Source of the DNA: Fibrobacterota bacterium
Lineage (GTDB): Bacteria > Fibrobacterota > Fibrobacteria > UBA11236
Direction: 5' to 3'
DNA: 64,000 nt
NCBI GenBank assembly: GCA_947466585.1
Contig: CANIEU010000009.1
Span: 14,923-78,922, forward strand
Shown one piece after another: positions 6,647 to 39,039 of this stretch. Position numbers and translations under genes: made by a program. Below the pieces are notes generated by a model, which was not told the DNA's origin, did no database searches, and was given only the letters and a program-made list of their open reading frames with translations. Position 1 is the first letter of the stretch; the number at the start of each line of letters is the position of its first letter.

Positions 6647-9256
6647 TCAGGCTTCAGGCTCCCCGTCGGTGGCATCCTGGGCTTCGTCAGCCACGGTATC
6701 CTCCGCTTCGGTTTCACCGTCGGTCTCCACGACAGGACCGGCTTCCGCCGCCTGCTGTGCGCGGGCCTGTTCGGCCGACTCAAGCTTCTCGGGATCGACG
6801 TCGTCCTTCTCGACGATGGTCACGCCGGTGACGGCGTCGCCTTCTTCGAGTCGGATCACGCGCACGCCCTGCGTGTCGCGACCGATCACGTTGATACCCC
6901 CGACTTCCTGCCGGATGATGTTACCCGTGCGGGTGATGATCAGGATTTCCTGATCTTCGCGCACCGACGCCATGCAAACGGCCGGCCCGGTCTTTTCGGT
7001 GATGCGGAAGTTGCGCACGCCCTTGCCGCCGCGGCCTGTGACGCGATATTCACCGGGTTCGGTGCGTTTGCCAGAGCCGTTTTCGGTAATGGTCAGTACG
7101 GTGATACCGTCTTCGACCACGTTCATCCCGATCACGACATCGCCTTCTTCGAGGTTGATGCCGCGTACGCCGCGGGTACCGCGTCCCATGGAACGGAACT
7201 TGCCCATGCCGAAGCGGTTGGCTTGTCCGAGGCGCGTGCCGATCATCACATCGTTAGCCGGGGAGGCCAACGCCACGCTGACGAGGCGATCGCCTTCGTT
7301 GAGTTCGATGGCGTTGATACCCGCCTGACGCGGACGTGAGTAAGCCTCCAGCGACATTTTGTTGATGACGCCGCGTTCGGTCGCGAACACGAGGAAGCGC
7401 GGATCTTCAAAGCCGCGCACCGGTACGAATGCGCTGACCTTCTCATCAGGTTGCAACTGGATCAGGTTGATCACCGCCTTGCCCTTGGCCGTGCGGGCCG
7501 CCTCGGGAATGAGGTGAACGCGCAACCAGTGGCAGCGGCCGAGGTTGGTAAACACCAACACGAAGCCGTGGGTCCAACCCACGAACAGGTGCTCGACGAA
7601 ATCTTCGTCTTTGAGGCCGGCTGCGGAGATGCCGCGTCCGCCACGACCCTGCAACTTGTAGGCGTCGGTACCGATGCGTTTGATGTAGCCGCCGTGCGAG
7701 ACGGTGATGACCATCGGTTCGTTGGGGATGAGGTCGAGCGCGTCGATGTCGTCGGCGTGATCCATGATCGCCGTGCGGCGTTCATCGCCGTGCTTTTCGA
7801 CGATGGCGATGAGTTCGCCCTCGATGATGGCCATGCGGCGGTCGCGGCTGCCGAGGATGTCTTGGAGATCGGCGATGGTTTTGAGGAGTTCCTGATACTC
7901 GTGCTCGATCTTGTCGCGCTCGAGACCGGTCAGGCGTTGCAGACGCATTTCGAGGATGGCGTCGGCCTGGCGTTCGGAGAGTTCGAACTGCTCCATCAAG
8001 CCTGCGCGCGCGGCGGAAGTGTCGTTGCTGGCGCGAATCAGCGCCACGATGGAATCGATATGGTCGAGCGCGATGCGCAGACCTTCGAGGATGTGCGCGC
8101 GGTCTTGTGCCTTGCGCAGGTCGAAGGCGGTGCGGCGTTCCACCACGTTGTGGCGGTGCTTGAGGAAGTAGAACACCAGATCGCGCAGGCCGAGGGTGCG
8201 CGGACGGCCTTCCACCAGAGCCAGATTGTTGATGCCGAAGGTTTCCTGCAATTGCGTGTGCTTGTACAGGGTGTTCAGCACCACTTCGGCAAAGGCGTCC
8301 TTTTTGAGCTCGATGATGATGCTCATGCCGTTGCGATCGCTCTCGTCGCGCAGGTCGGAGATGCCTTCGACTTCTTTGTCACGCACGAGCGCTGCCATTT
8401 TTTCGAGCAAGGTGGTCTTGTTGACCTGGTAGGGGATTTCCGATACCACGATGCGGTTGCGGCCGTTGGCCATTTCCTCGATCTCGCAACGTCCGCGCAC
8501 GACCACGCGCCCACGGCCCGTGAGATAGGCGTCGCGGATGCCGCTGCGGCCGTGGATGATGCCGCCGGTGGGGAAGTCGGGGCCGCTGACGAAAGGGAGC
8601 AAATCTTCCGCGCTGATGTCGGGGTTGTGGATCATCGCGATACAGGCGTTCACGATCTCACGCAGGTTGTGGGGGGCCATGTTGGTGGCCATACCTACCG
8701 CGATGCCCGTGCTGCCATTGACGAGCAGGTTGGGGAAGGCGGACGGAAGAACGGTCGGTTCCTTCAGGGACTCGTCGTAGTTCGGGACGAAGTCGACCGT
8801 ATCCTTGTCGAGATCCTGCAACACGAGCTCGGCGATTTTGTCCATGCGGGCTTCGGTGTAACGCATGGCCGCAGCGCGGTCGCCGTCGATGGACCCGAAG
8901 TTGCCCTGACCATCGACTAGCGGATACCGCATCGAGAAGCCTTGGGCGAGACGCACCAGCGTATCATAGATCGATGAGTCGCCGTGCGGATGGTACTTGC
9001 CCATCACCTCACCGACGATATTGGCGGACTTCTTGTAGGGCTTGTCGTTGGAAAGCGAAAGCGTGTCCATACCGAACAACACGCGCCGATGCACGGGCTT
9101 CAGTCCGTCGCGGACGTCGGGAAGGGCGCGCGACACGATCACGGACATCGAGTACCGGAGGTACGACATCTTCATCTCGTCTTCGATGAAGGCGTCGACC
9201 ACCTTTCCGCTGTTCGTGCCCCCGGCTGCGGGGATGGCGCTGATTTCGTTGCTCAT
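6647..9256 (-). CDS. gyrA: DNA gyrase subunit A
   Basis: [31 protein letters not shown] and the active-site Tyr region are present, followed by a C-terminal beta-pinwheel. There is an acidic, low-complexity C-terminal tail. Confidence 0.95.
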
Positions 9257-9333
9257 GACGGTACTCCTGGACTTTTAACGAGAGAATTCAAGAAAATGCG
9301 GATCGGATCGAACGGTTTGAAAAACGGGTGCGG

Positions 9334-10149
9334 TTACCGCGCGGCTTGAATGGTTGCTTGAGTCGCAGCGGGGCTGGGCGAGAGACTGTTCAGCCAGGCG
9401 GCGCGGAGCTGAAGGTCGGCCAGGGCGGATTCGTCCGACTGGGAGACGCGCAGCGGCGTCACCGCGATGTAGTTCTCCCGCAGCACGGCGTCGTCGGTTC
9501 CCACCTCGAACAATTCGGCCGGTTTGTGACCGAGCAGGCGGTGGGCGGAAATTCCGTGCGAGGTGGTTTCGTCAACGTAGTGGTCTCGGAACATCACGGT
9601 GCTCATCCGCGTAAAACGGGAGCCGGCCACATCTGAGGGCGCACAGGCCGGGAAGTTGATGTTCCAGAAGGTTCCGGGCTTGGGCAGCGATTCCGGGGCC
9701 CGGAGCAGGTTCAGGAGCCATTCCAAGGCATATTCGAGATGCACCGGGGTGCTTTCGGAGAGGCTGACCGCCAGTGCGGGGATGTTCCACAGCGCGGCTT
9801 CGCGGGCGGCGGCCACGGTTCCGGAGTACACGGCGCTGATGCCTGCGTTTTCGCCGAGGTTCGGGCCCGAGATTACCACATCGGGAAGCTGGTCGCGCAA
9901 CAAATGCGACACGGCAAACTTGACGCAATCGCTGGGCGTTCCGTCGACCCGGTACAGCGGCCAAGGCGTGGTCATCTCTTGCTCGTAGGTGAGGAACTTG
10001 CCGGTACCATGCGTGAAGGCGTGCGACTTGCCGCTTTGATCGTTTGCGGGGGCGGCCACCACGACATCGTGCTCGCCCGCCAGTGCGTCCGCGGAGCGGT
10101 ACAGCACGGGGCTCAGAACGCCGTCGTCGTTGGTCAGGAGAATGCGCAT
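9334..10149 (-). CDS. surE: 5'/3'-nucleotidase SurE
   Basis: MRILLTNDDG start and SGPNLG.N motif. Start placed at the internal ATG at 10149. The longer ORF to 10302 merely reads through the upstream repeat array. Confidence 0.85.
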   Translation of the reverse strand: MRILLTNDDGVLSPVLYRSADALAGEHDVVVAAPANDQSGKSHAFTHGTGKFLTYEQEMTTPWPLYRVDGTPSDCVKFAVSHLLRDQLPDVVISGPNLGENAGISAVYSGTVAAAREAALWNIPALAVSLSESTPVHLEYALEWLLNLLRAPESLPKPGTFWNINFPACAPSDVAGSRFTRMSTVMFRDHYVDETTSHGISAHRLLGHKPAELFEVGTDDAVLRENYIAVTPLRVSQSDESALADLQLRAAWLNSLSPSPAATQATIQAAR

Positions 10150-10159
10150 GAAACCTTTT

Positions 10160-10477
10160 TCAATAGGGTTTTCAATAAGGTTTTCAGGTGTGCGTTCGGA
10201 GCCGTTTTTAGAGCGGTTTTCCGAACAGTTATTCGAACAGTTTTCCGTACAGAATTCCTGCGCATTTTGAGCAGGAATTTTAGGGACTTTGAACCTTATC
10301 AAAGGTAGCTTCGGGGGCGTTTTTTCGCAACAAAAACCCGCTTTATTCCCAAGGTTTCTGAGGTGTTTTCCGGGCCAGTTTTCAAGGCGTTTTCTAGATT
10401 CCGCGCTTCGTGTTTTCCGGCCCGAATTCCGGTTCCGGTTTCACAGTTTTTCCATGGTTTTCCCAAGGTTTTTTTTC
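10160..10477. repeat. Array of degenerate ~12-bp tandem repeats (consensus ~GTTTTCCGAACA) in the divergent surE/hisS promoter region
   Basis: At least 14 GTTTTC/GTTTTT cores in ~320 bp, for example gttttccgaaca gttattcgaaca gttttccgtaca gaattcctgcgca ttttgagcagga. Locally AT-rich. Both strands stay open across it because the repeats lack stop codons. Confidence 0.8.
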
Positions 10478-31021: not shown

Positions 31022-31174
31022 CGCTTTTTTAGTTAATTAGTCGATTTTAGCTAGAAGTGCCGAGATCTAGTCCCAATCTCCTGAGCAAGGTAAAATCGAT
31101 TATTTGATTCGTTAAATCGGTAAATAAGCTTTAAAAAAGCCATATCCCCATAATATTTCGATACTATAGGGATA
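31022..31174 (+). promoter_or_regulatory. AT-rich regulatory region upstream of the carH-like gene; candidate operator
   Basis: Strongly AT-rich in a GC-rich genome. Contains direct repeats aaatcgattat.../aaatcggtaaat and an inverted repeat ctaga-N11-tctag. Confidence 0.45.
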
Positions 31175-32236
31175 ATGATTGAAACCGAAACGGACTTCCT
31201 TACCACCTCGCAGGCCGCTCTTTTACTCCAAGTTCACGAATCCTCTGTGAAGCGGTGGAGCAACTCGGGCGAACTGAAACTCGAAAAAACCTCCGGCGGT
31301 CACCGCCGTATTCGTTTCGAGGCGCTTCTCGATTTCGCCCGGGCCAAGGATCCGGGAGGAGATCTCTTGTTCTTCGCCCCGCACGAAGAGGAAGTCGCAC
31401 GCGCGGCGCTCGATGCCCGCGACCGCAATCAGTTCGACGGGGTGGGCGAACTGATCCTGCGCTTTTGCGACACGGAACCTCCGCGTTGGCTCGCTCATCT
31501 GATCCGCTACCTGGAGGGACCGTGCGGCATTCCCCTCACGCGCATCTTCGACGCCGGCATCGGCGGGGCGCTGGCCGATGTCGGCACCCAATGGCAAAAC
31601 GGGTCGCGCACGATCGCGCTCGAACACCGCTTCACTCAAAAGATCCTCGACGCCCTGCATGCCATTCTCACCCATCTCGAAGATGTGGACGACGCCGAAG
31701 AATCGGCGGAGCAAGCCTTGCGTGCGGTGCATGCCCTGGATCCCAAAAACGCAGTAGCATCGGATCGAGGAACCGTGGAAGGGCGCAAGCGCCCCCATGC
31801 GGTGGTGGGTTGCTCCGAGGGCTGCCACCATGAGATCGGCGCCTTGATGGCGCGCATCCTGTTGCAACGCGCCGGCTGGAGCGTAACCTATCTCGGTGCC
31901 AACGTGCCGTTCGAAGAGATGGCCGGTATTCAGGAGCTGGAACGCGCGCAAGTGATGTGCGTTTCTTTCGTGTCGCCGCTGGGTGCTGGGGATGTGCGCC
32001 GCTGCCTCAAAGTGCTGAACGCCTTGCAACAGCCCAATGCGCCCTATCGGCTCGTCACCGGAGGCCTGTCGTACCTTGCGGGCACCGAAGACCAGTATGA
32101 AACGCGCATCCCCATCAAGTTCGTGGAATCCATGGAAGGCTTTGAGCGGTGGTTCCGCACACAATTTGCCAAGGAGTTGGCGCGAGCCGCCAATTTCCGC
32201 AATGCAGTGGCCGGGGTCGCTGGGGTACCCCGATGA
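31175..32236 (+). CDS. CarH/LitR-like light-responsive regulator (MerR HTH + B12-binding domain)
   Basis: N-terminal MerR HTH (LTTSQAALLLQVHESSVKRWSNSGELK). C-terminal cobalamin-binding Rossmann with HAVVGCSEGCHHEIGALMARILLQRAGWSVTYLG, a H-x-x-G motif resembling the CarH E-x-H-x-x-G. Confidence 0.75.
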   Translation: MIETETDFLTTSQAALLLQVHESSVKRWSNSGELKLEKTSGGHRRIRFEALLDFARAKDPGGDLLFFAPHEEEVARAALDARDRNQFDGVGELILRFCDTEPPRWLAHLIRYLEGPCGIPLTRIFDAGIGGALADVGTQWQNGSRTIALEHRFTQKILDALHAILTHLEDVDDAEESAEQALRAVHALDPKNAVASDRGTVEGRKRPHAVVGCSEGCHHEIGALMARILLQRAGWSVTYLGANVPFEEMAGIQELERAQVMCVSFVSPLGAGDVRRCLKVLNALQQPNAPYRLVTGGLSYLAGTEDQYETRIPIKFVESMEGFERWFRTQFAKELARAANFRNAVAGVAGVPR

Positions 32237-34026
32237 AGGCCGCGATGAATGATGAGATGAATCGTAACAGGAAATGTGACATGCCTTCCAAGATGTCCAT
32301 TGAGGACAATCAATCGAGCCTGCCCGCATGGTTGCGCGCGCAATCCGATACCTTGTCCACCGAAACCTCGATGGAATATCTAGCGCGGCACAGTCACTCC
32401 TTCCGCTATGCCGCGCGCTTTTTACCCCCGCCGTTCGACACGCATGTCGCCGATGTGTACGCCTTTTGCCGATTCACCGACGATCTGGTCGACGGGTCCA
32501 CGCTGCCTGTTCCCGAGTTGCGCGCGCGCCTCTCCGACTGGCGGCGCTTGGCGCAACAAGCGCATAGAGGAGTGCCCACGGGCTTCGCTCTGCTCGACCG
32601 CCCCCTGATCGACATGGGGCGGCGCGGCATCCCCTTTGATTACGCCAGCGAGTTGATCGCTGGTGTGGCCATGGATTTGGAGCCGCGCCGCTACGCCACA
32701 CTCGCAGAACTCGATCTTTACAGTTACCGCGTGGCCTCAGTGGTAGGCCTGTGGCTCACCCGGCTCGTCGGAGTGAACGATCCGCAGGTACTGAAGCGTG
32801 CCGCCGATCTGGGTCACGCCATGCAGGTGACCAATATCCTCCGGGATGTGGGGGAGGACTGGGCCGTGGGTCGTTTGTATCTGCCGCTCGATGTGCTGGC
32901 CCGTCATGGAGTTCGCGAGGAAGACTTGGCAGAGTCCATGGCTTCCGCATCCGTCGATTCCCTTCCTCTGGGCTGGCAGGGTGCGATGGAAGAACTGATG
33001 TCCCTCGCCGATGCCCGCTACTGGAGTGCCTTCGGTGCGATTCCCGCCTTGCCCCGGTTTTTCCGCGTTCCCGTCGCGGTGTCGGGTCTTGTGTATCGCG
33101 ACATCCACACCGCCATCCGCCGCAACCGGTATGACAACCTGCGCTGCCGGGCACACACCTCGCGCACTCGTAAACTGTGGCTGGGCCTGAAGGCCCGCAT
33201 GCAAGTGGGCCTTTCAGGTATCGGCATCGGAGTCGAACGAGAGCAGGTGACTTCGCATTCCCTCAAGGACGCGCCGGAAAGTGCGGCAGCGCGGGGGTTC
33301 AGCCTGCGGAAGGCCGGCCTGCGCATCGTGCTACCGCTGTTCCTGTTGTTGTTGCTGTTTCTCGCGGGTGCCGCCGCAGGTTCGGCGCAGCCTCAAACTC
33401 CGCCCGCGCTCGAGTCGAGCGCAGAAGCGCGGGCGCGCCGGGAGTTGACTCGCATCGAGACCGAAATGCGGGGGCAACCGGAGAACCTCGATCTGCAGCT
33501 GCAACGCCTGCGTATTTTGCATCCCCTCAGCGTTCAGGATGCGGCGCTGCTGCCCGTGTCGCGGTCGGCGCGCGATCAGGCCGAACGCACGGTACGTGAA
33601 AATCCGGGAACGGCGCTGCAATCCAAGCAGCGTGGGGCAGAGCCGCTCAACCTGCTGCTGGCCTACGCAGGCGCGCTCGACGTGGTGGAAGCGCGCCATG
33701 CCTTTTGGCCGCGGGCCCGCCTCGAACCCTTGGAGCGCGGATTGCCGCGACTCGATTCGGCGGTGCAGCGCGATCCCGACAACGCCGAGATCCGTTATTT
33801 AAGACTCACCAGCAGCTATTACCTGCCGTTTTTTCTGGGGCGCAAATGGAGCGTGCGCGAAGATTTTAAGGCGTTGGCGGAATTGTTGCCGCGCGCGCGC
33901 GACGCCTACCCGGCGGAGTGGTATGCCGCCATCACCGATTTCGTACTGGAGAAGGGCGATCTCGGCGAGCGCGAGAGAAGCCGGTTGCAACGCGCGCGGC
34001 GCGAAGCGTTCGCGCGGAACCCGTGA
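32233..34026 (+). CDS. crtB: Phytoene synthase fused to ~250-aa C-terminal TM-anchored domain of unknown function
   Basis: N-terminal ~330 aa carry squalene/phytoene synthase motifs (YAFCRFTDDLVD, MQVTNILRDVGED). A hydrophobic helix IVLPLFLLLLLFLAGAAAG and a charged alpha-helical domain follow in the same frame. ATGA overlap with the regulator. Confidence 0.8.
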   Translation: MKAAMNDEMNRNRKCDMPSKMSIEDNQSSLPAWLRAQSDTLSTETSMEYLARHSHSFRYAARFLPPPFDTHVADVYAFCRFTDDLVDGSTLPVPELRARLSDWRRLAQQAHRGVPTGFALLDRPLIDMGRRGIPFDYASELIAGVAMDLEPRRYATLAELDLYSYRVASVVGLWLTRLVGVNDPQVLKRAADLGHAMQVTNILRDVGEDWAVGRLYLPLDVLARHGVREEDLAESMASASVDSLPLGWQGAMEELMSLADARYWSAFGAIPALPRFFRVPVAVSGLVYRDIHTAIRRNRYDNLRCRAHTSRTRKLWLGLKARMQVGLSGIGIGVEREQVTSHSLKDAPESAAARGFSLRKAGLRIVLPLFLLLLLFLAGAAAGSAQPQTPPALESSAEARARRELTRIETEMRGQPENLDLQLQRLRILHPLSVQDAALLPVSRSARDQAERTVRENPGTALQSKQRGAEPLNLLLAYAGALDVVEARHAFWPRARLEPLERGLPRLDSAVQRDPDNAEIRYLRLTSSYYLPFFLGRKWSVREDFKALAELLPRARDAYPAEWYAAITDFVLEKGDLGERERSRLQRARREAFARNP

Positions 34027-34814
34027 TGCGTATCGATATGTCTCAATCCCTCCCTGTTTTTTCGAACCTGCTTGCGCGCGGCTTCGAAATCGTATTTGAC
34101 CTTGTGAAGAGTGTCGGCCTCGCCGGGGTGCATTGGAGCATCCCCGCTGGCCTGGCGCAGCGCCTGCCGGCCGATCGACCCGTGGTGCTGTTCGGAAACC
34201 ACTCCAGCAATTGGGATGGTTTTCTGTACCGTGACCTGCAAAAGAAACTGCGCCCCGGCATGCCGATCTACAGCCTGATGCTCGAGCGTGAATTGCGGCG
34301 TCTGCCGCTCTTTCGTGCCCTGGGCGGCATCGGTATTGATTCGACCTCTCCCGGCTCCGTGGCTCGTGCCTTGCGGTCTGCAAGAGCGCTGCGAGGGCCC
34401 TCTTTTACTTCCGCCGGCTTTTTCTTCAGCGTGTTTCCGCAAGGCTCCACCTATCCCGCCGGCAAACGCCCGCTGGGATTTCAGGAAGGCCTCCGGCACT
34501 TTGCAAAAGCGCTGGGCCCGGTGACCTTGTTGCCGGTGGCGTTGCAATTCGAACTGCTGGGCAGCGTGCGTCCGCATGCCTTTGTTTCCGTAGGCGAGCC
34601 GATCGCGGTTCCAGAATCCGCGGGGAAGGTCATTGACCTCGGCTCCATTCCCTCGCTCGATGTGCTCGAAGCACAGGTGACGGCTCTGTTGGATGGGCTG
34701 AACGCCGATCTCTCGGCACGCGGCGAAGCCGCGGTTTCAATACCTGGCGAAGCCACGGTTTCAATGCCGGGCGAAGCGGCGGTATCCAACGTAGTAGGGG
34801 AGAGTCCCGTATGA
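34026..34814 (+). CDS. Lysophospholipid/1-acyl-sn-glycerol-3-phosphate acyltransferase-family protein (likely carotenoid glycoside acyltransferase, CruD-like)
   Basis: H-x4-D acyltransferase motif (NHSSNWDGF) and FPQGST. The C-terminal 27-bp x3 tandem repeat encodes GEAAVSIPGEATVSMPGEAAVS. ATG overlaps the crtB stop. Confidence 0.65.
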   Translation: MRIDMSQSLPVFSNLLARGFEIVFDLVKSVGLAGVHWSIPAGLAQRLPADRPVVLFGNHSSNWDGFLYRDLQKKLRPGMPIYSLMLERELRRLPLFRALGGIGIDSTSPGSVARALRSARALRGPSFTSAGFFFSVFPQGSTYPAGKRPLGFQEGLRHFAKALGPVTLLPVALQFELLGSVRPHAFVSVGEPIAVPESAGKVIDLGSIPSLDVLEAQVTALLDGLNADLSARGEAAVSIPGEATVSMPGEAAVSNVVGESPV

Positions 34815-36022
34815 TCGCTGCCCTGTTGCATGCCGGCTTCTTCGCCGCAAACCTCGAGTCGGTAGCGGCCACCGCTTCGTTGTGCATCCTTGCGGGCATG
34901 GTTTGCATGGTCGTATTCAACACCCTGACTGCGCCACGCGCAGGGGGCCAAAAGTCGCCAACGGTGTTCCCGAAGGTGAGTTTGCTGGTGCCCGCGCGCA
35001 ACGAGGCGCACAACGTGCCCATTCTCGCCGCGCATTTCGAAAAGCTGGAGTATCCGAATTTGGAGATCATTCTCCTCGACGATGCTTCCGACGATGGCAC
35101 GGGGGCGGCGCTCGGAGATCTGGTAAACCTCCCGGCATTGCGCGGGCGCGCCCGCTCGTTGCGGGGCGCAGAATTGCCCACCGGTTGGCTCGGGAAAAAC
35201 TGGGCCTGTCATCAACTCGCTCAAACTTCCTCGGGAGATGTGCTGATCTTTTGCGATGCCGATGCGCGCCCCGGGCCGCAAGCGGTGACCCGCACCGTGG
35301 CGTTGTTGGAACACTATGGCGTCGGCTGCGCCACCTTGATGCCGCGCCAGGTGCTCGGGTCGTGGGCCGAGCGCGCGGTGATTCCGGTACTGCTGCACAT
35401 CTCGCTGTTCTGCTTCCTTCCCATCGCCCTCGTGCCGCGCCTGCGCTGGAAGCGCCTCGGGGTGGGGAACGGGCAATGGCTTTCGTTCCGTCGCTCCGCA
35501 TACGCCGCGGTGGGCGGCCATGCGGGCGTGCGCGACAAGGTGGTGGAAGATATCGCCCTTGCGCAGCGTGCCCAGACCCATGGAAACGGTCTGGTCGTGG
35601 GGTTGGCGACCGATACGCTTGCCGTGCGCATGTACCGAAACTTCCGCGAAGTGTGGGATGGTTTCGGCAAAAACGTGTTCGTGCTCACAGGCGGTACGCT
35701 GTGGCAGACGCCGTTCTTCGGCTTGTTTTTTGCGCTGATCCACATTCTTCCCTGGCTGCTCTTCCTCCTGCATCCGCAGTTGTGGGGGCTGCCGCTCGCT
35801 TTGCTTTTGGTTTGTCGCGTGCTCACCGCCCGTGCCTTGGGCGAACCGCTGGGGGCCATTGCCGGACAAGTCGCCGGGTCCATCCTGGTTCCCCTCATCG
35901 TCGCGCGCTCGCTGTTCGATTTCCGTTTTCATCGCCTGCAGTGGAAGGGCCGCATTCTGAATGCCGGTCCGCCTCCGGTGCAAAGTTTGGCCCAGAATCG
36001 GGCCTCCAAGGAGTCTTTGTGA
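34811..36022 (+). CDS. Family-2 glycosyltransferase (likely carotenoid glycosyltransferase, CruC/CrtX-like role)
   Basis: GT2 motifs (SLLVPARNEAHNV, ILLDDASDDGT, FCDADAR) and C-terminal TM helices. It sits inside the carotenoid operon. Confidence 0.7.
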   Translation: MIAALLHAGFFAANLESVAATASLCILAGMVCMVVFNTLTAPRAGGQKSPTVFPKVSLLVPARNEAHNVPILAAHFEKLEYPNLEIILLDDASDDGTGAALGDLVNLPALRGRARSLRGAELPTGWLGKNWACHQLAQTSSGDVLIFCDADARPGPQAVTRTVALLEHYGVGCATLMPRQVLGSWAERAVIPVLLHISLFCFLPIALVPRLRWKRLGVGNGQWLSFRRSAYAAVGGHAGVRDKVVEDIALAQRAQTHGNGLVVGLATDTLAVRMYRNFREVWDGFGKNVFVLTGGTLWQTPFFGLFFALIHILPWLLFLLHPQLWGLPLALLLVCRVLTARALGEPLGAIAGQVAGSILVPLIVARSLFDFRFHRLQWKGRILNAGPPPVQSLAQNRASKESL

Positions 36023-37551
36023 ATTCCGTGACCGAACAAAAAAAAGGGGCAGTGCCCCGAACCGCCATCGTGATCGGCTCCGGCTTCGGCGGGCTGTCCG
36101 CCGCTATTCGCCTGCAAAGCCGGGGTATTCAGGTCACACTGGTGGAGCAACGGGAAAAGGTCGGCGGCCGCGCCTACCAAATGAAAGAAGGCGGGTACAC
36201 CTTCGACATGGGCCCGTCCCTCATCACCGCGCCGCAGATCCTCGACAAGGTGTTTGCCTGTGCGGGCACATCGTTGTCGGCAGCCTTGCCGCTGTTGCCG
36301 CTCGATCCGTTTTACCGCGTGTTCTTTCACGATCACAGCCGCTTCGAGTACAACGGATCCCCGGAAGGCATGAAGGCGCAGATGCGCCAGTACAATGCCG
36401 CCGATGCGGACCGCTACGACGATTTCATGAAGGCCGTGGCGCCCATTTATGCGGAAGTGATCGAGAAGGGATTGGGCAGTCGTTCCTTCGGGAATCCCTG
36501 GACGATGATTCGTTTTATCCCCACGGTGATTCGCCTCGGGGCGTGGCGTACTGCGACGCAATTCGCCAACAAGTACTTCAAGGACTGGCGTCACCGCTTC
36601 GTGTTCAGCTTCCATTCGCTGTACATCGGCGGCAACCCGTTTCACTGCCCGGCGATTTACCAGATGATTCCGTTTTTGGAGCGGGCACAGGGTGTCTGGT
36701 ACACGCCGGGCGGCATGTATTCGTTGACGCGGGCACTGGAAAAGGCCTTTATCGGACTCGGTGGTGTGGTGCGCACGTCCACCCCGGTAACGCGCATCCG
36801 GGTTGAAGGAGGCAGAGCGACCGGTGTAGAAATTCCGGAGGGATTCCTTCCCGCCGATCTGGTGGTGAGCAACGCCGACGTGGGATTCACCTACGCGAAA
36901 CTGATCGCACCGGAGCATCGCCGCAAGTGGACTGACGCGAAGGTGAACCGTCAGGAATTCACGATGAGTTGCTTCCTGATCTTCTTGGGCGTGAAGAAGC
37001 GCTATCCGGAATTGGCCCATCATACCCTGATTCTGGCGGAGCGCTATAAGGATCTGTTGAAAGACATTTTCAAGAACAAGATTCTGCCTGGTGATTTCAG
37101 CATGTACGTGCACGCGCCCACGCGCACCGACGACACCATGGCGCCGCCAGGGTGCGAGAGTCTGATGGTGCTGGTTCCGGTGGCGAATCAGGCGTCGGGT
37201 ATCGACTGGAAGACTCAGGCGCAGCCCTATGCGGACAAGATCCTGGACTTTTTGGAACAGTGGGGTTTGACTGATTTACGGGAGAACCTGGAAGTCTTTA
37301 AGCTGTTCACGCCCGATGATTTCGAATCGGAGCTTTCGGCGTGGCGGGGCAATGCCTTCGGCATCGAGCCGCGTTTGTCGCAGACGGGTTACTTCCGCCC
37401 GCACAACCGGAGCGAGGATCTGGCGGGGTTGTACTTTACCGGGGCGGGCACGCATCCCGGCGCGGGTGTTCCCGGCGTGATGCTTTCTGCCGAGGCCGCA
37501 GAGCGGTGTATCGTCGAGGATTGGCCCGCGTTAACGAAGAAAGGTTTATGA
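36019..37551 (+). CDS. crtI: Phytoene desaturase
   Basis: FAD-binding IVIGSGFGGLSAAIRL and a CrtI-family C-terminus (GLYFTGAGTHPGAGVPGV). GTG start overlaps the upstream stop. Confidence 0.9.
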   Translation: MNSVTEQKKGAVPRTAIVIGSGFGGLSAAIRLQSRGIQVTLVEQREKVGGRAYQMKEGGYTFDMGPSLITAPQILDKVFACAGTSLSAALPLLPLDPFYRVFFHDHSRFEYNGSPEGMKAQMRQYNAADADRYDDFMKAVAPIYAEVIEKGLGSRSFGNPWTMIRFIPTVIRLGAWRTATQFANKYFKDWRHRFVFSFHSLYIGGNPFHCPAIYQMIPFLERAQGVWYTPGGMYSLTRALEKAFIGLGGVVRTSTPVTRIRVEGGRATGVEIPEGFLPADLVVSNADVGFTYAKLIAPEHRRKWTDAKVNRQEFTMSCFLIFLGVKKRYPELAHHTLILAERYKDLLKDIFKNKILPGDFSMYVHAPTRTDDTMAPPGCESLMVLVPVANQASGIDWKTQAQPYADKILDFLEQWGLTDLRENLEVFKLFTPDDFESELSAWRGNAFGIEPRLSQTGYFRPHNRSEDLAGLYFTGAGTHPGAGVPGVMLSAEAAERCIVEDWPALTKKGL

Positions 37552-37883
37552 GGGTTGTCGTGGAAGGAGATCGGACAACCAGTTCGTGCTCGGAGCGGCT
37601 CCGCTCCGGACGCTATAAACAGGCCCTGCGGGCCAGTTTGTCGCTAGGCTATCCGGTGCTCGCCGCTCTTCCGCGCGAACCGGTGCGCCCGCTCTCCACG
37701 ATGACAGTTTGCAAGCTTTCCCAGATCAAAACACCTTGGCACGACCGCCGGGCGGAGGCGGAAAAACTTCTCGAAGCGGAGCGAGACGCGGGGTCCCCTC
37801 TGGGGACGTCGAGCGAGCATCGAAAGTTTTTCCGTCGACCATCCCGGCGCATGCACGAGCCCTCGTTTGGAAATGGTCGATGA
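37548..37883 (+). CDS. Possible small hypothetical protein between crtI and the cyclase (uncertain)
   Basis: 111-codon ORF whose ATG overlaps the crtI TGA (tATGAg) and whose TGA overlaps the cyclase ATG (cgATGa). GC3 (~65%) is lower than in neighbours, so it may be a non-coding spacer. Confidence 0.3.
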   Translation: MRVVVEGDRTTSSCSERLRSGRYKQALRASLSLGYPVLAALPREPVRPLSTMTVCKLSQIKTPWHDRRAEAEKLLEAERDAGSPLGTSSEHRKFFRRPSRRMHEPSFGNGR

Positions 37884-38602
37884 GTTTCTGGAATTCTCAC
37901 CTCACATACCTCACGATCGACCTGCTCACGATCGCGTTTCCGCTCGCGTACAGCTTTACCGCACGGTCGGGCTTCAGCAAGCACCTGGGTCGCGTATGCG
38001 CGGCCATCGCATTGGTCGCCGTCCCCATGCTCGTCTGGGACGCCGTGTTTACGGCCCACGGAGTCTGGGGATTCAATCGAGATTACATCCTCGGCTTCTC
38101 TCCATTCGGGTTACCGGTGGAGGAAATCCTCTTCTTCCTCTGCATTCCCTTCGCCTGCCTGTTCATCTACGACACCGTTAAAAATTTCCCCCGCCTCGCA
38201 CTGCCCGAACGCCCCGTCCGCATTCTTGCCGGCCTGCTCGCCGTCGTGTTGATCGCGTTCGCTACGGCGAACACACACCGCGCCTACACGCTGCTCGCCT
38301 GCCTCGGCGCCGCGCCTTTCCTGGTCGCCCTCGCCGCTGGTCACCTCCGCTTTCGCCTCGGCCACATCGCCAGTGCCTACATGTTCCACCTGATTCCGTT
38401 CTTCCTCGTCAACGGAATCTTGACCGGCATGTTTACCGCGCAACCCGTGGTGTGGTACAACAACGCCGAAAACCTCGGCATCCGTTTGGGCAGCATTCCC
38501 ATTGAAGATGCCGCATACTCCATGATCCTACTGTTCGGTGCGATCTTTCTACTGGAACGACCGACCTCGCAGAAAACCGAAAAACCCGGAAGCCCACTGT
38601 GA
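37880..38602 (+). CDS. Lycopene cyclase domain protein (CrtYcd-type, fused heterodimeric cyclase)
   Basis: ~240-aa polytopic membrane protein with the duplicated cyclase-domain pattern (W..HL.YL..DL...FP and a second half with PVEE.LFF). Position between crtI and crtZ supports the call. Confidence 0.6.
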   Translation: MSFWNSHLTYLTIDLLTIAFPLAYSFTARSGFSKHLGRVCAAIALVAVPMLVWDAVFTAHGVWGFNRDYILGFSPFGLPVEEILFFLCIPFACLFIYDTVKNFPRLALPERPVRILAGLLAVVLIAFATANTHRAYTLLACLGAAPFLVALAAGHLRFRLGHIASAYMFHLIPFFLVNGILTGMFTAQPVVWYNNAENLGIRLGSIPIEDAAYSMILLFGAIFLLERPTSQKTEKPGSPL

Positions 38603-39039
38603 TTCTCGACCTGCTGATTTTCTTCTCCGTCTTTTTTCTGATGGAAGCTGTCGCCTGGGCCGCGCACAAATACGTGATGCACGGGTTTTTGTGGTCGCTG
38701 CATGAATCGCACCATCTGCCGCGCACGGGGGCGTTCGAGAAGAACGACTGGTTCGGCGCGTTCTTCAGCTTGGTGGCCATGGCGCTGTTCGCGGCGGGGT
38801 ATTTCATCGACGTCCGCTTTACCGCGGCGGGGTTGGGCATGACGGCGTACGGCTTCGCCTACCTGTTTCTGCACGACATTCTCAATCACAAACGTTTCGG
38901 AATTCACATCAAGCCGAACAATCGTTATCTGCGGTCCGTGCTGCAGTCCCATCGCATCCACCATGCGACCCAGGGCAAGGACGGCTGCGTGTCGTTCGGG
39001 TTTCTGGTACCGATGCGAGCCAAAAGGCGCATTTTTTAA
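38599..39039 (+). CDS. crtZ: Beta-carotene 3-hydroxylase
   Basis: His boxes AAHKYVMHG, HESHH, HDILNHKRF and HRIHHAT..GKDGCVSFGF are collinear with Pantoea CrtZ. GTG start overlaps the upstream stop. Confidence 0.85.
   Translation: MILDLLIFFSVFFLMEAVAWAAHKYVMHGFLWSLHESHHLPRTGAFEKNDWFGAFFSLVAMALFAAGYFIDVRFTAAGLGMTAYGFAYLFLHDILNHKRFGIHIKPNNRYLRSVLQSHRIHHATQGKDGCVSFGFLVPMRAKRRIF

Follow-up and report, generated by a model that had tools for sequence, protein, structure and literature searches.

Why does the phytoene synthase gene of a Fibrobacterota bacterium continue in frame far beyond the end of its catalytic domain? The question is raised by a carotenoid operon within the window, a stretch of 64,000 nucleotides (assembly GCA_947466585.1, contig CANIEU010000009.1, positions 14,923 to 78,922 of the forward strand), to which the coordinates below refer unless a locus is named. 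The reaction of phytoene synthase (CrtB) is the committed step of carotenoid synthesis and usually limits its rate. In this operon its reading frame passes through a flexible linker and a hydrophobic helix into an all-helical domain belonging to an unnamed protein family, for which the label X has been coined here. The 597-residue product is probably a selected fusion of CrtB with an exported, TPR-like X protein, in which the enzyme would be tethered to the membrane and X would be located in the periplasm.

Reading frame and reliability of the fused gene

A single uninterrupted open reading frame (ORF) extends over 32149-34026 of the forward strand (625 residues stop-to-stop), with no break between the CrtB part and the tail. 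The fused gene, crtB::X, occupies 32233..34026 (+) and encodes 597 residues, counted from its likely start codon, ATG 32233; this codon and the stop of the preceding regulator gene overlap as ATGA. An alternative start, M17, is located at 32281, and public gene calls are divided between M1 (597 residues) and M17 (581 residues, P0191). At the other end, the stop codon TGA 34024-34026 shares a base with ATG 34026 of the next gene (TGATG). The earlier note, made from the sequence of the window, had described an in-frame tail with a hydrophobic helix (here aa 365-383), some 220 further residues (about 210 as determined here) and an ATG-overlapping end, and this description is borne out.

The catalytic domain of CrtB (aa ~30-330; 32320..33222, +) matches Pfam SQS_PSY (PF00494) over positions 2-263 of the 263 in the profile and scores 212.3 bits (cut-off 26); the match corresponds to aa 79-341 of the 625-residue ORF, or aa 51-313 of the 597-residue protein. 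Both Asp-rich DxxxD motifs, which in squalene/phytoene synthases bind Mg2+/diphosphate, can be read from the sequence: D83-D-L-V-D87 (32479-32493) and D205-V-G-E-D209 (32845-32859). In the full-length AlphaFold2 (AF2) model the predicted local distance difference test score (pLDDT) exceeds 90 over aa 30-330, the first ~30 residues being of low confidence. The cut-offs of the NCBIfam CrtB equivalogs were not reached (133-173 bits vs 480-550), and the NCBIfam HpnD score on this domain also remained below threshold (183.5 bits vs 278.6). The predicted assignment as CrtB, converting geranylgeranyl diphosphate (GGPP) to phytoene, is therefore made because of the operon context with crtI, a cyclase and a hydroxylase. 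No Pfam domain other than SQS_PSY was found in the protein; about 50 residues precede it, and PF04240 (CruF) is absent.

The most trivial reading of such a gene, that an error removed the crtB stop or shifted the frame and that two genes are in fact present, is very improbable. It gains some weight from the fact that most members of the X family are split from crtB, including the closest X relative, P0001 (L006 2450-3145; 59% identity), a separate gene overlapping the crtB stop by 4 nt. Moreover, the same 1794-nt ORF was found, identical, in the NCBI metagenome-assembled genome (MAG) GCA_947475575.1 and in the Logan assembly of run ERR3761205, and these two copies may come from the same reads. 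However, the junction is not a one-nucleotide slip but a linker of ~35 residues, over which the GC content of third codon positions (GC3) stays of the coding type (0.70-0.82) in the crtB::X frame, while the two alternative frames are interrupted by stops within aa 299-338 and at positions 404/454. The diverged orthologues P0002, from another MAG, and P0102 (~58% identity) are fused in the same continuous layout with a comparable linker, and fusions recur in Rhodothermia as well as in the closed genome of a cultured isolate. A frameshift hidden in the ORF, which the earlier note had asked to be excluded, is thus contradicted by GC3, by the stops in the other frames and by the fused orthologues. 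The fusion of CrtB with its tail is genuine and evolutionarily maintained.

An in-frame ATG (33199, M323) is located just past the CrtB domain, with GAAGG 5 nt upstream of it. The alignment of split and fused relatives indicates that M323 is not conserved in the fused ones. An internal start at this codon, which may yield a separate X protein, is kept as a caveat only.

The X family and its genetic ties to carotenoid genes

X is found mostly as a standalone protein of 180-270 residues. A word-indexed search with the tail returned 55 homologues, and a full search by profile, over 1.8 billion cluster representatives, yielded 2926 at E<=1e-3, of which 1119 also satisfied E<=1e-10. The tail and its family members, used as single sequences and as profiles, gave nothing above threshold against Pfam, NCBIfam and PDB sequences. 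The statement of the earlier note that the tail has no assignable similarity therefore holds for these three collections but not beyond them, as there are many uncharacterised homologues with E-values down to 4e-57. A match to chi-conotoxin (E 0.007) was dismissed as low-complexity noise, and an orange-carotenoid-protein-like (PF09150) or OR/DnaJ-like identity of X was likewise considered and gave no match. No description of the family was found in the literature on TPR or hypothetical proteins linked to crtB. Whereas fusions of carotenoid enzymes are already known, the X partner family is undescribed.

The genomic surroundings of X have been analysed in one genome per GTDB species, scanned with an 8-sequence alignment, which yielded 38 X loci. 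Carotenoid-type genes lie within 6 kb of X in every one of them, and crtB is directly upstream in 24. The crtB-adjacent loci belong to Fibrobacterota, Longimicrobium and other Gemmatimonadota, Rhodothermia and one member of the Bacteroidota, in which crtB and X overlap by 4 nt; the order crtB, X is present, for example, in L001, L002, L003, L006 and L045. In Fibrobacteria MAGs X is a separate gene, abutting or overlapping the crtB stop, and their operons are colinear with that of the window (successively: regulator, crtB, X, acyltransferase, GT2, crtI, lycopene-cyclase-domain gene, hydroxylase). In the remaining loci (Poribacteria, Kapabacteria and others) X abuts a gene for a CrtI/CrtD-family desaturase or a lycopene-cyclase-domain protein. 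On a Kapabacteria chromosome (L040 5749-7858) it overlaps the gene of a CrtD-like 1-hydroxycarotenoid 3,4-desaturase, with no crtB within 6 kb. Owing to these contexts, X can be regarded as a carotenoid-cluster gene across at least five phyla, and all the lineages carrying it are apparently diderm, the majority coming from the FCB group. The tail had been taken for a novel appendage of CrtB; instead, it corresponds to a protein with a widely conserved gene of its own, as a rule situated just behind crtB and here fused to it. The separate copies beside crtB for which the earlier note proposed to look do exist, as the 24 loci demonstrate.

Fusion is nevertheless not confined to the window. By stop-to-stop analysis, a single ORF holds both crtB and X not only in the window but also in a second Fibrobacteria MAG and three genomes of Rhodothermia. 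The survey of fusions covered the best 150 family representatives, 20 of which have at least ~385 residues, plus the shorter partial P0071 (342 residues); in every long representative checked (the 20 and P0071) SQS_PSY is situated immediately N-terminal of X. Three architectures have been distinguished: (i) CrtB-X, represented by the window protein, P0002, P0102, P0123, P0057 and P0172; (ii) CruF(PF04240)-CrtB-X, with eight representatives, the PF04240 domain being found in relatives such as P0076 and P0162; and (iii) CrtE(polyprenyl synthase)-CrtB-X, with six. P0162 is WP_166975541.1 of the cultured Rhodocaloribacter litoris (Rhodothermaceae, closed genome), a CruF-CrtB-X protein of 826 residues annotated merely as "carotenoid biosynthesis protein". 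Such fusions account for over-long CrtB proteins annotated "phytoene synthase" or "carotenoid biosynthesis protein". The earlier note had also allowed for the tail being a well-known domain commonly fused to CrtB; commonly fused it is, but it is neither known nor named.

In the neighbour-joining tree of X domains the fused and split forms are interleaved, and the split P0001 nests among the fused sequences of the window, P0002 and P0102. This interleaving indicates repeated fusion or fission of crtB and X, even among close relatives. The fused and split states are probably functionally equivalent.

Predicted topology and fold of the tail and the likely role of X

The tail begins with a flexible linker (aa 331-364; 33223..33324, +), defined by the alignment and by pLDDT values <50 for aa 335-358. 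This segment of ~35 residues is missing from the aligned split homologues and is rich in Arg and Lys at its C-terminal end (RGFSLRKAGLR). It is followed by the hydrophobic helix IVLPLFLLLLLFLAGAAAG (aa 365-383; 33325..33381, +), identified from the sequence and the alignment and modelled by AF2 as a helix over aa 359-383. In standalone X proteins the homologue of this helix is the N-terminal signal peptide or anchor, and a hydrophobic segment between CrtB and X is retained in all fused proteins examined. A signal/anchor segment precedes the X domain in 57 of the 78 standalone members starting with Met, and also in the fused members. The N-termini of standalone X proteins resemble Sec signal peptides, e.g. 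MKFFAALLLAAGLAFA followed by SRE. In fused members two to four Lys/Arg residues are present just upstream of the hydrophobic segment, compared with none or one downstream. These features point to an N-in/C-out arrangement, with CrtB in the cytoplasm and the X domain in the periplasm. The full-length AF2 model consists of confident CrtB (aa 30-330) and X (aa 396-597) parts, between which there are the disordered linker, the helix 359-383 and a second disordered stretch. No rigid packing or interface between CrtB and X is predicted, since the predicted template modelling score (pTM) of the full-length model is just 0.58, and the domains rather resemble beads on a string.

The X domain (aa 396-597; 33418..34023, +) has been delimited by AF2, Foldseek and family searches as an all-helical unit of ~200 residues. 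Modelled from a 53-sequence alignment, it consists of ten helices (pLDDT 94.4, pTM 0.90). The top matches in a Foldseek comparison with the PDB were TPR proteins, although weak ones (E 5.5e-3, TM <=0.47), and no TPR family exceeded its cut-off in the sequence, the best being TPR_14 with a sub-threshold E of 0.033 in 7 of 53 members. At most, the modelled fold may be called a TPR-like helical repeat. The family signature is GAL..V.AKH.FWP ... E.RYLRL.S.YYLPFFLGR..SV.EDF, and every invariant column of it is present in the window sequence. The most conserved motif, EIRYLRLTSSYYLPFFLGRK (aa 519-538; 33787..33846, +; alignments A1, A2 and A5), falls between helices 7 and 8, in a stretch that DSSP assigns to a non-helical loop (pLDDT ~95). 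The YYLP loop is kept even in the most distant members.

It might be asked whether X is instead a carotenoid-pathway enzyme that has so far escaped recognition, for instance an isomerase or a periplasmic tailoring step. Several polar residues (K95-H96, R128, R131, D151 and R144 in A2 numbering) are invariant within the crtB-linked clades, which speaks for it. Nonetheless, this proposal is quite improbable: the clade-specific charged residues are lost in the Poribacteria/Kapabacteria branch (RYLRL -> ALFIYG), so that only WP, one Gly and the aromatic YYLP loop are universal in the most distant branches; the helical-repeat fold has no cofactor motif; and X co-occurs with very different end-product gene sets. 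A role in handling or scaffolding is more likely than a catalytic one, because (i) among the conserved elements the aromatic YYLPFF loop and the WP motif stand out as universal; (ii) the clade-specific charged residues are not conserved family-wide; (iii) the fold is a binding-type repeat; and (iv) X accompanies very different sets of tailoring genes. Most likely, X would be a carotenoid/isoprenoid-lipid handling or scaffolding module at the outer face of the inner membrane.

A second alternative places X on the same side as the enzyme, as a cytoplasmic, membrane-associated partner of CrtB with a regulatory, holdase or assembly function, comparable with the plant protein ORANGE (OR). The hydrophobic segment would then be an in-plane or hairpin anchor, and both domains would touch at one face of the membrane. 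The constant position of X directly C-terminal of CrtB in fusions, together with the translational coupling of the split genes, is a classic signature of interacting proteins, and TPR-like folds are protein-binding modules. On the other hand, the standalone N-termini look like cleavable Sec signal peptides (basic n-region, h-region of 12-18 residues, small-residue c-region), the flanking charge bias of the fused proteins fits N-in/C-out, no confident packing of the two domains against each other is obtained with AF2 (pTM 0.58, disordered linkers), and X is not similar to the OR/DnaJ zinc-finger domains. This arrangement is accordingly considered unlikely. The membrane anchor or scaffold proposed in the earlier note stands as far as a tethering membrane helix is present, but the tail as a cytoplasmic scaffold for the enzyme is unlikely, because the charge distribution would put X in the periplasm, opposite CrtB.

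The small-residue motif GSA/Q is located directly after the hydrophobic helix of the window protein (the slash marks a putative cleavage site). Signal peptidase might thus cut the protein as a polyprotein after ...AAAGSA/Q, so that X would be set free in the periplasm as a soluble protein and CrtB would keep a membrane anchor at its C-terminus. Such processing would agree with the small-residue c-region kept in the window protein (AAG-SA/Q) and in fused relatives (ASF/S, AMA/A), as well as with the free interchange of fused and split forms in the tree, which would be natural if both gave identical mature products. The long h-region (19 residues) favours an uncleaved anchor instead, and cleavage seems rather doubtful. 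Such cleavage would not compete with the membrane-tethered fusion favoured here; the two are compatible, and the polyprotein amounts to a variant of that reading.

The preferred reading, CrtB tethered by the internal helix with X exported, can be set out as follows. In the split state crtB and X are translationally coupled through the 4-nt overlap, and X, which starts with a signal-like segment, would be exported by it. In the window a linker of ~35 residues takes the place of the crtB stop, so that the signal/anchor of X would turn into an internal transmembrane helix. This helix would tether CrtB at the cytoplasmic face of the inner membrane, the destination of lipophilic phytoene, and the X domain would be threaded to the periplasmic face in a 1:1 ratio with the enzyme. 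There the invariant aromatic loop YYLPFF may dock on the membrane or bind the polyene. A further extension, put forward tentatively, is that X may be an unrecognised periplasm-facing component of the carotenoid pathway, supplied 1:1 with CrtB, which, on the outer side of the inner membrane, takes up carotenoids or organises them, while the internal signal of the fused gene either tethers CrtB or is cleaved to give two products. In this way X could, for example, start the transfer of carotenoids to the outer membrane or to envelope proteins that bind them.

Several points weigh against the proposed arrangement. The topology is a prediction from the positive-inside rule and the signal-peptide-like N-termini. 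Tight genetic coupling to a cytoplasmic enzyme would be easier to explain by physical contact, yet with the two domains on opposite sides the membrane helix would be the sole place where CrtB and X could meet. Nor is CrtB the exclusive partner, because the Kapabacteria X is coupled to a CrtD-like desaturase. As for the fusion itself, the possible common origin of the two identical copies of the ORF has to be kept in mind.

A large unnamed family (more than 1000 sequence clusters in at least five phyla) is thus tied to CrtB by adjacency, translational coupling and at least three fusion architectures, and despite this genetic tie X apparently lies across the membrane from CrtB. Heterologous crt operons are routinely built without X. 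If X affects carotenoid yield, membrane targeting or trafficking, it is relevant to metabolic engineering and bears on how carotenoids reach the outer envelope of diderms. The uptake of carotenoids by X, if true, would add a non-enzymatic extracytoplasmic step to a pathway treated as purely cytoplasmic or membrane-bound.

The operon of the window and comparison with known systems

The genes of the carotenoid operon (31175-39039) are tightly packed, with stop/start overlaps at several junctions. The first gene (31175..32236, +) encodes a CarH/LitR-like regulator with MerR/HTH and B12-binding domains (Pfam HTH_17, B12-binding, MerR); a MerR/B12-binding regulator gene also precedes crtB in L001, L002, L003, L006 and L045. 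The fused gene is followed by a PlsC-type, CruD-like acyltransferase (34026..34814, +; PF01553), which has counterparts at the equivalent position in L001, L002, L005 and L006, and by a GT2 glycosyltransferase (34811..36022, +) of the CruC/CruG/HpnB-like type (Pfam Glycos_transf_2 and Glyco_transf_21; NCBIfam HpnB and CruG below cut-offs). The phytoene desaturase CrtI (36019..37551, +; start approximate) was identified by TIGR02734 crtI_fam with 557 bits, above the cut-off. A lycopene-cyclase-domain protein (37709..38602, +; TIGR03462 in two stretches), whose true start is probably downstream of 37709, and a small membrane hydroxylase of the FA_hydroxylase/CrtZ-like type (38599..39039, +; 45-63% identity to PF04116 genes in L001, L002 and L006) complete the operon. 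No GGPP synthase gene was seen inside it. From this gene content, the predicted product is a hydroxylated carotenoid glycoside fatty-acid ester of the thermozeaxanthin or salinixanthin type.

An inverted repeat with 14-bp arms, TATCCCTATAGTAT...ATATTATGGGGATA (31143-31174), is located in the AT-rich gap 31022-31174 and abuts the gene of the CarH/LitR-like regulator. As a candidate operator, it may place the carotenoid operon under the control of light. At the Bacteroidota locus L045 the cluster has the order MerR/B12, crtI, crtB, X, NUDIX, two unknown genes and lycopene cyclase, and is directly followed (8495-10326) by genes for a Blc-type lipocalin and a DNA photolyase; this lipocalin is a possible envelope acceptor for lipophilic pigments.

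The closest known system is that of Rhodothermus marinus, in which cruF and crtB form one fused gene and CrtB is inactive once the cruF part is deleted, so that a CrtB fusion can be indispensable for function (Kristjansdottir et al. 2020, PMC7414004). The R. marinus operon comprises a MerR regulator, cruF-crtB, a "hypothetical protein" (gene 10), the acyltransferase cruD and crtI, and X is not described in that paper (PMC7414004). Both operons are therefore of the same type, with crtB fused to a membrane-associated partner. In the window, however, the partner is C-terminal and of the X family rather than CruF, and the protein stands outside the CruF-CrtB type because it has no PF04240 domain. 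The two arrangements are united in Rhodothermia MAGs and in Rhodocaloribacter litoris, where CruF, CrtB and X are encoded in one ORF. Judged by its position, gene 10 of R. marinus is probably X; a search with a Rhodothermia X domain gave 10 matches, all metagenomic and none from R. marinus. This gene and WP_166975541.1 of R. litoris, a tractable organism, are entry points for experimental work.

In the fungal CrtYB/CarRA proteins a lycopene cyclase is fused to phytoene synthase, and the membrane-embedded partner anchors the enzyme, a precedent also cited in PMC7414004. The window protein shares with them a phytoene synthase covalently joined to a membrane-anchoring partner of the carotenoid pathway. 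The fungal partner is an N-terminal known enzyme, whereas that of the window consists of a single C-terminal helix and a non-enzymatic-looking repeat domain, predicted to lie across the membrane. With respect to fold, the best structural matches of X are the periplasmic or membrane-anchored TPR proteins TTC0263 of Thermus (2pl2), NlpI (1xnf) and MamA (3as5), which its model resembles in being an all-alpha hairpin repeat; it differs from TPR proteins in that no hidden Markov model reaches threshold, TM is <=0.47 and the family-defining YYLPFFLGR loop does not belong to the TPR pattern.

For a partner of phytoene synthase (PSY) that is not itself an enzyme, plant OR provides a conceptual precedent: it is a membrane protein dedicated to PSY, acts as its post-translational partner and controls flux. 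We know of no bacterial counterpart of OR recognised as a partner of phytoene synthase, and none was found in literature searches. OR is a DnaJ-like Cys-rich zinc-finger protein that shares its side of the membrane with PSY; X, in contrast, has no sequence or fold similarity to OR and is predicted to be extracytoplasmic.

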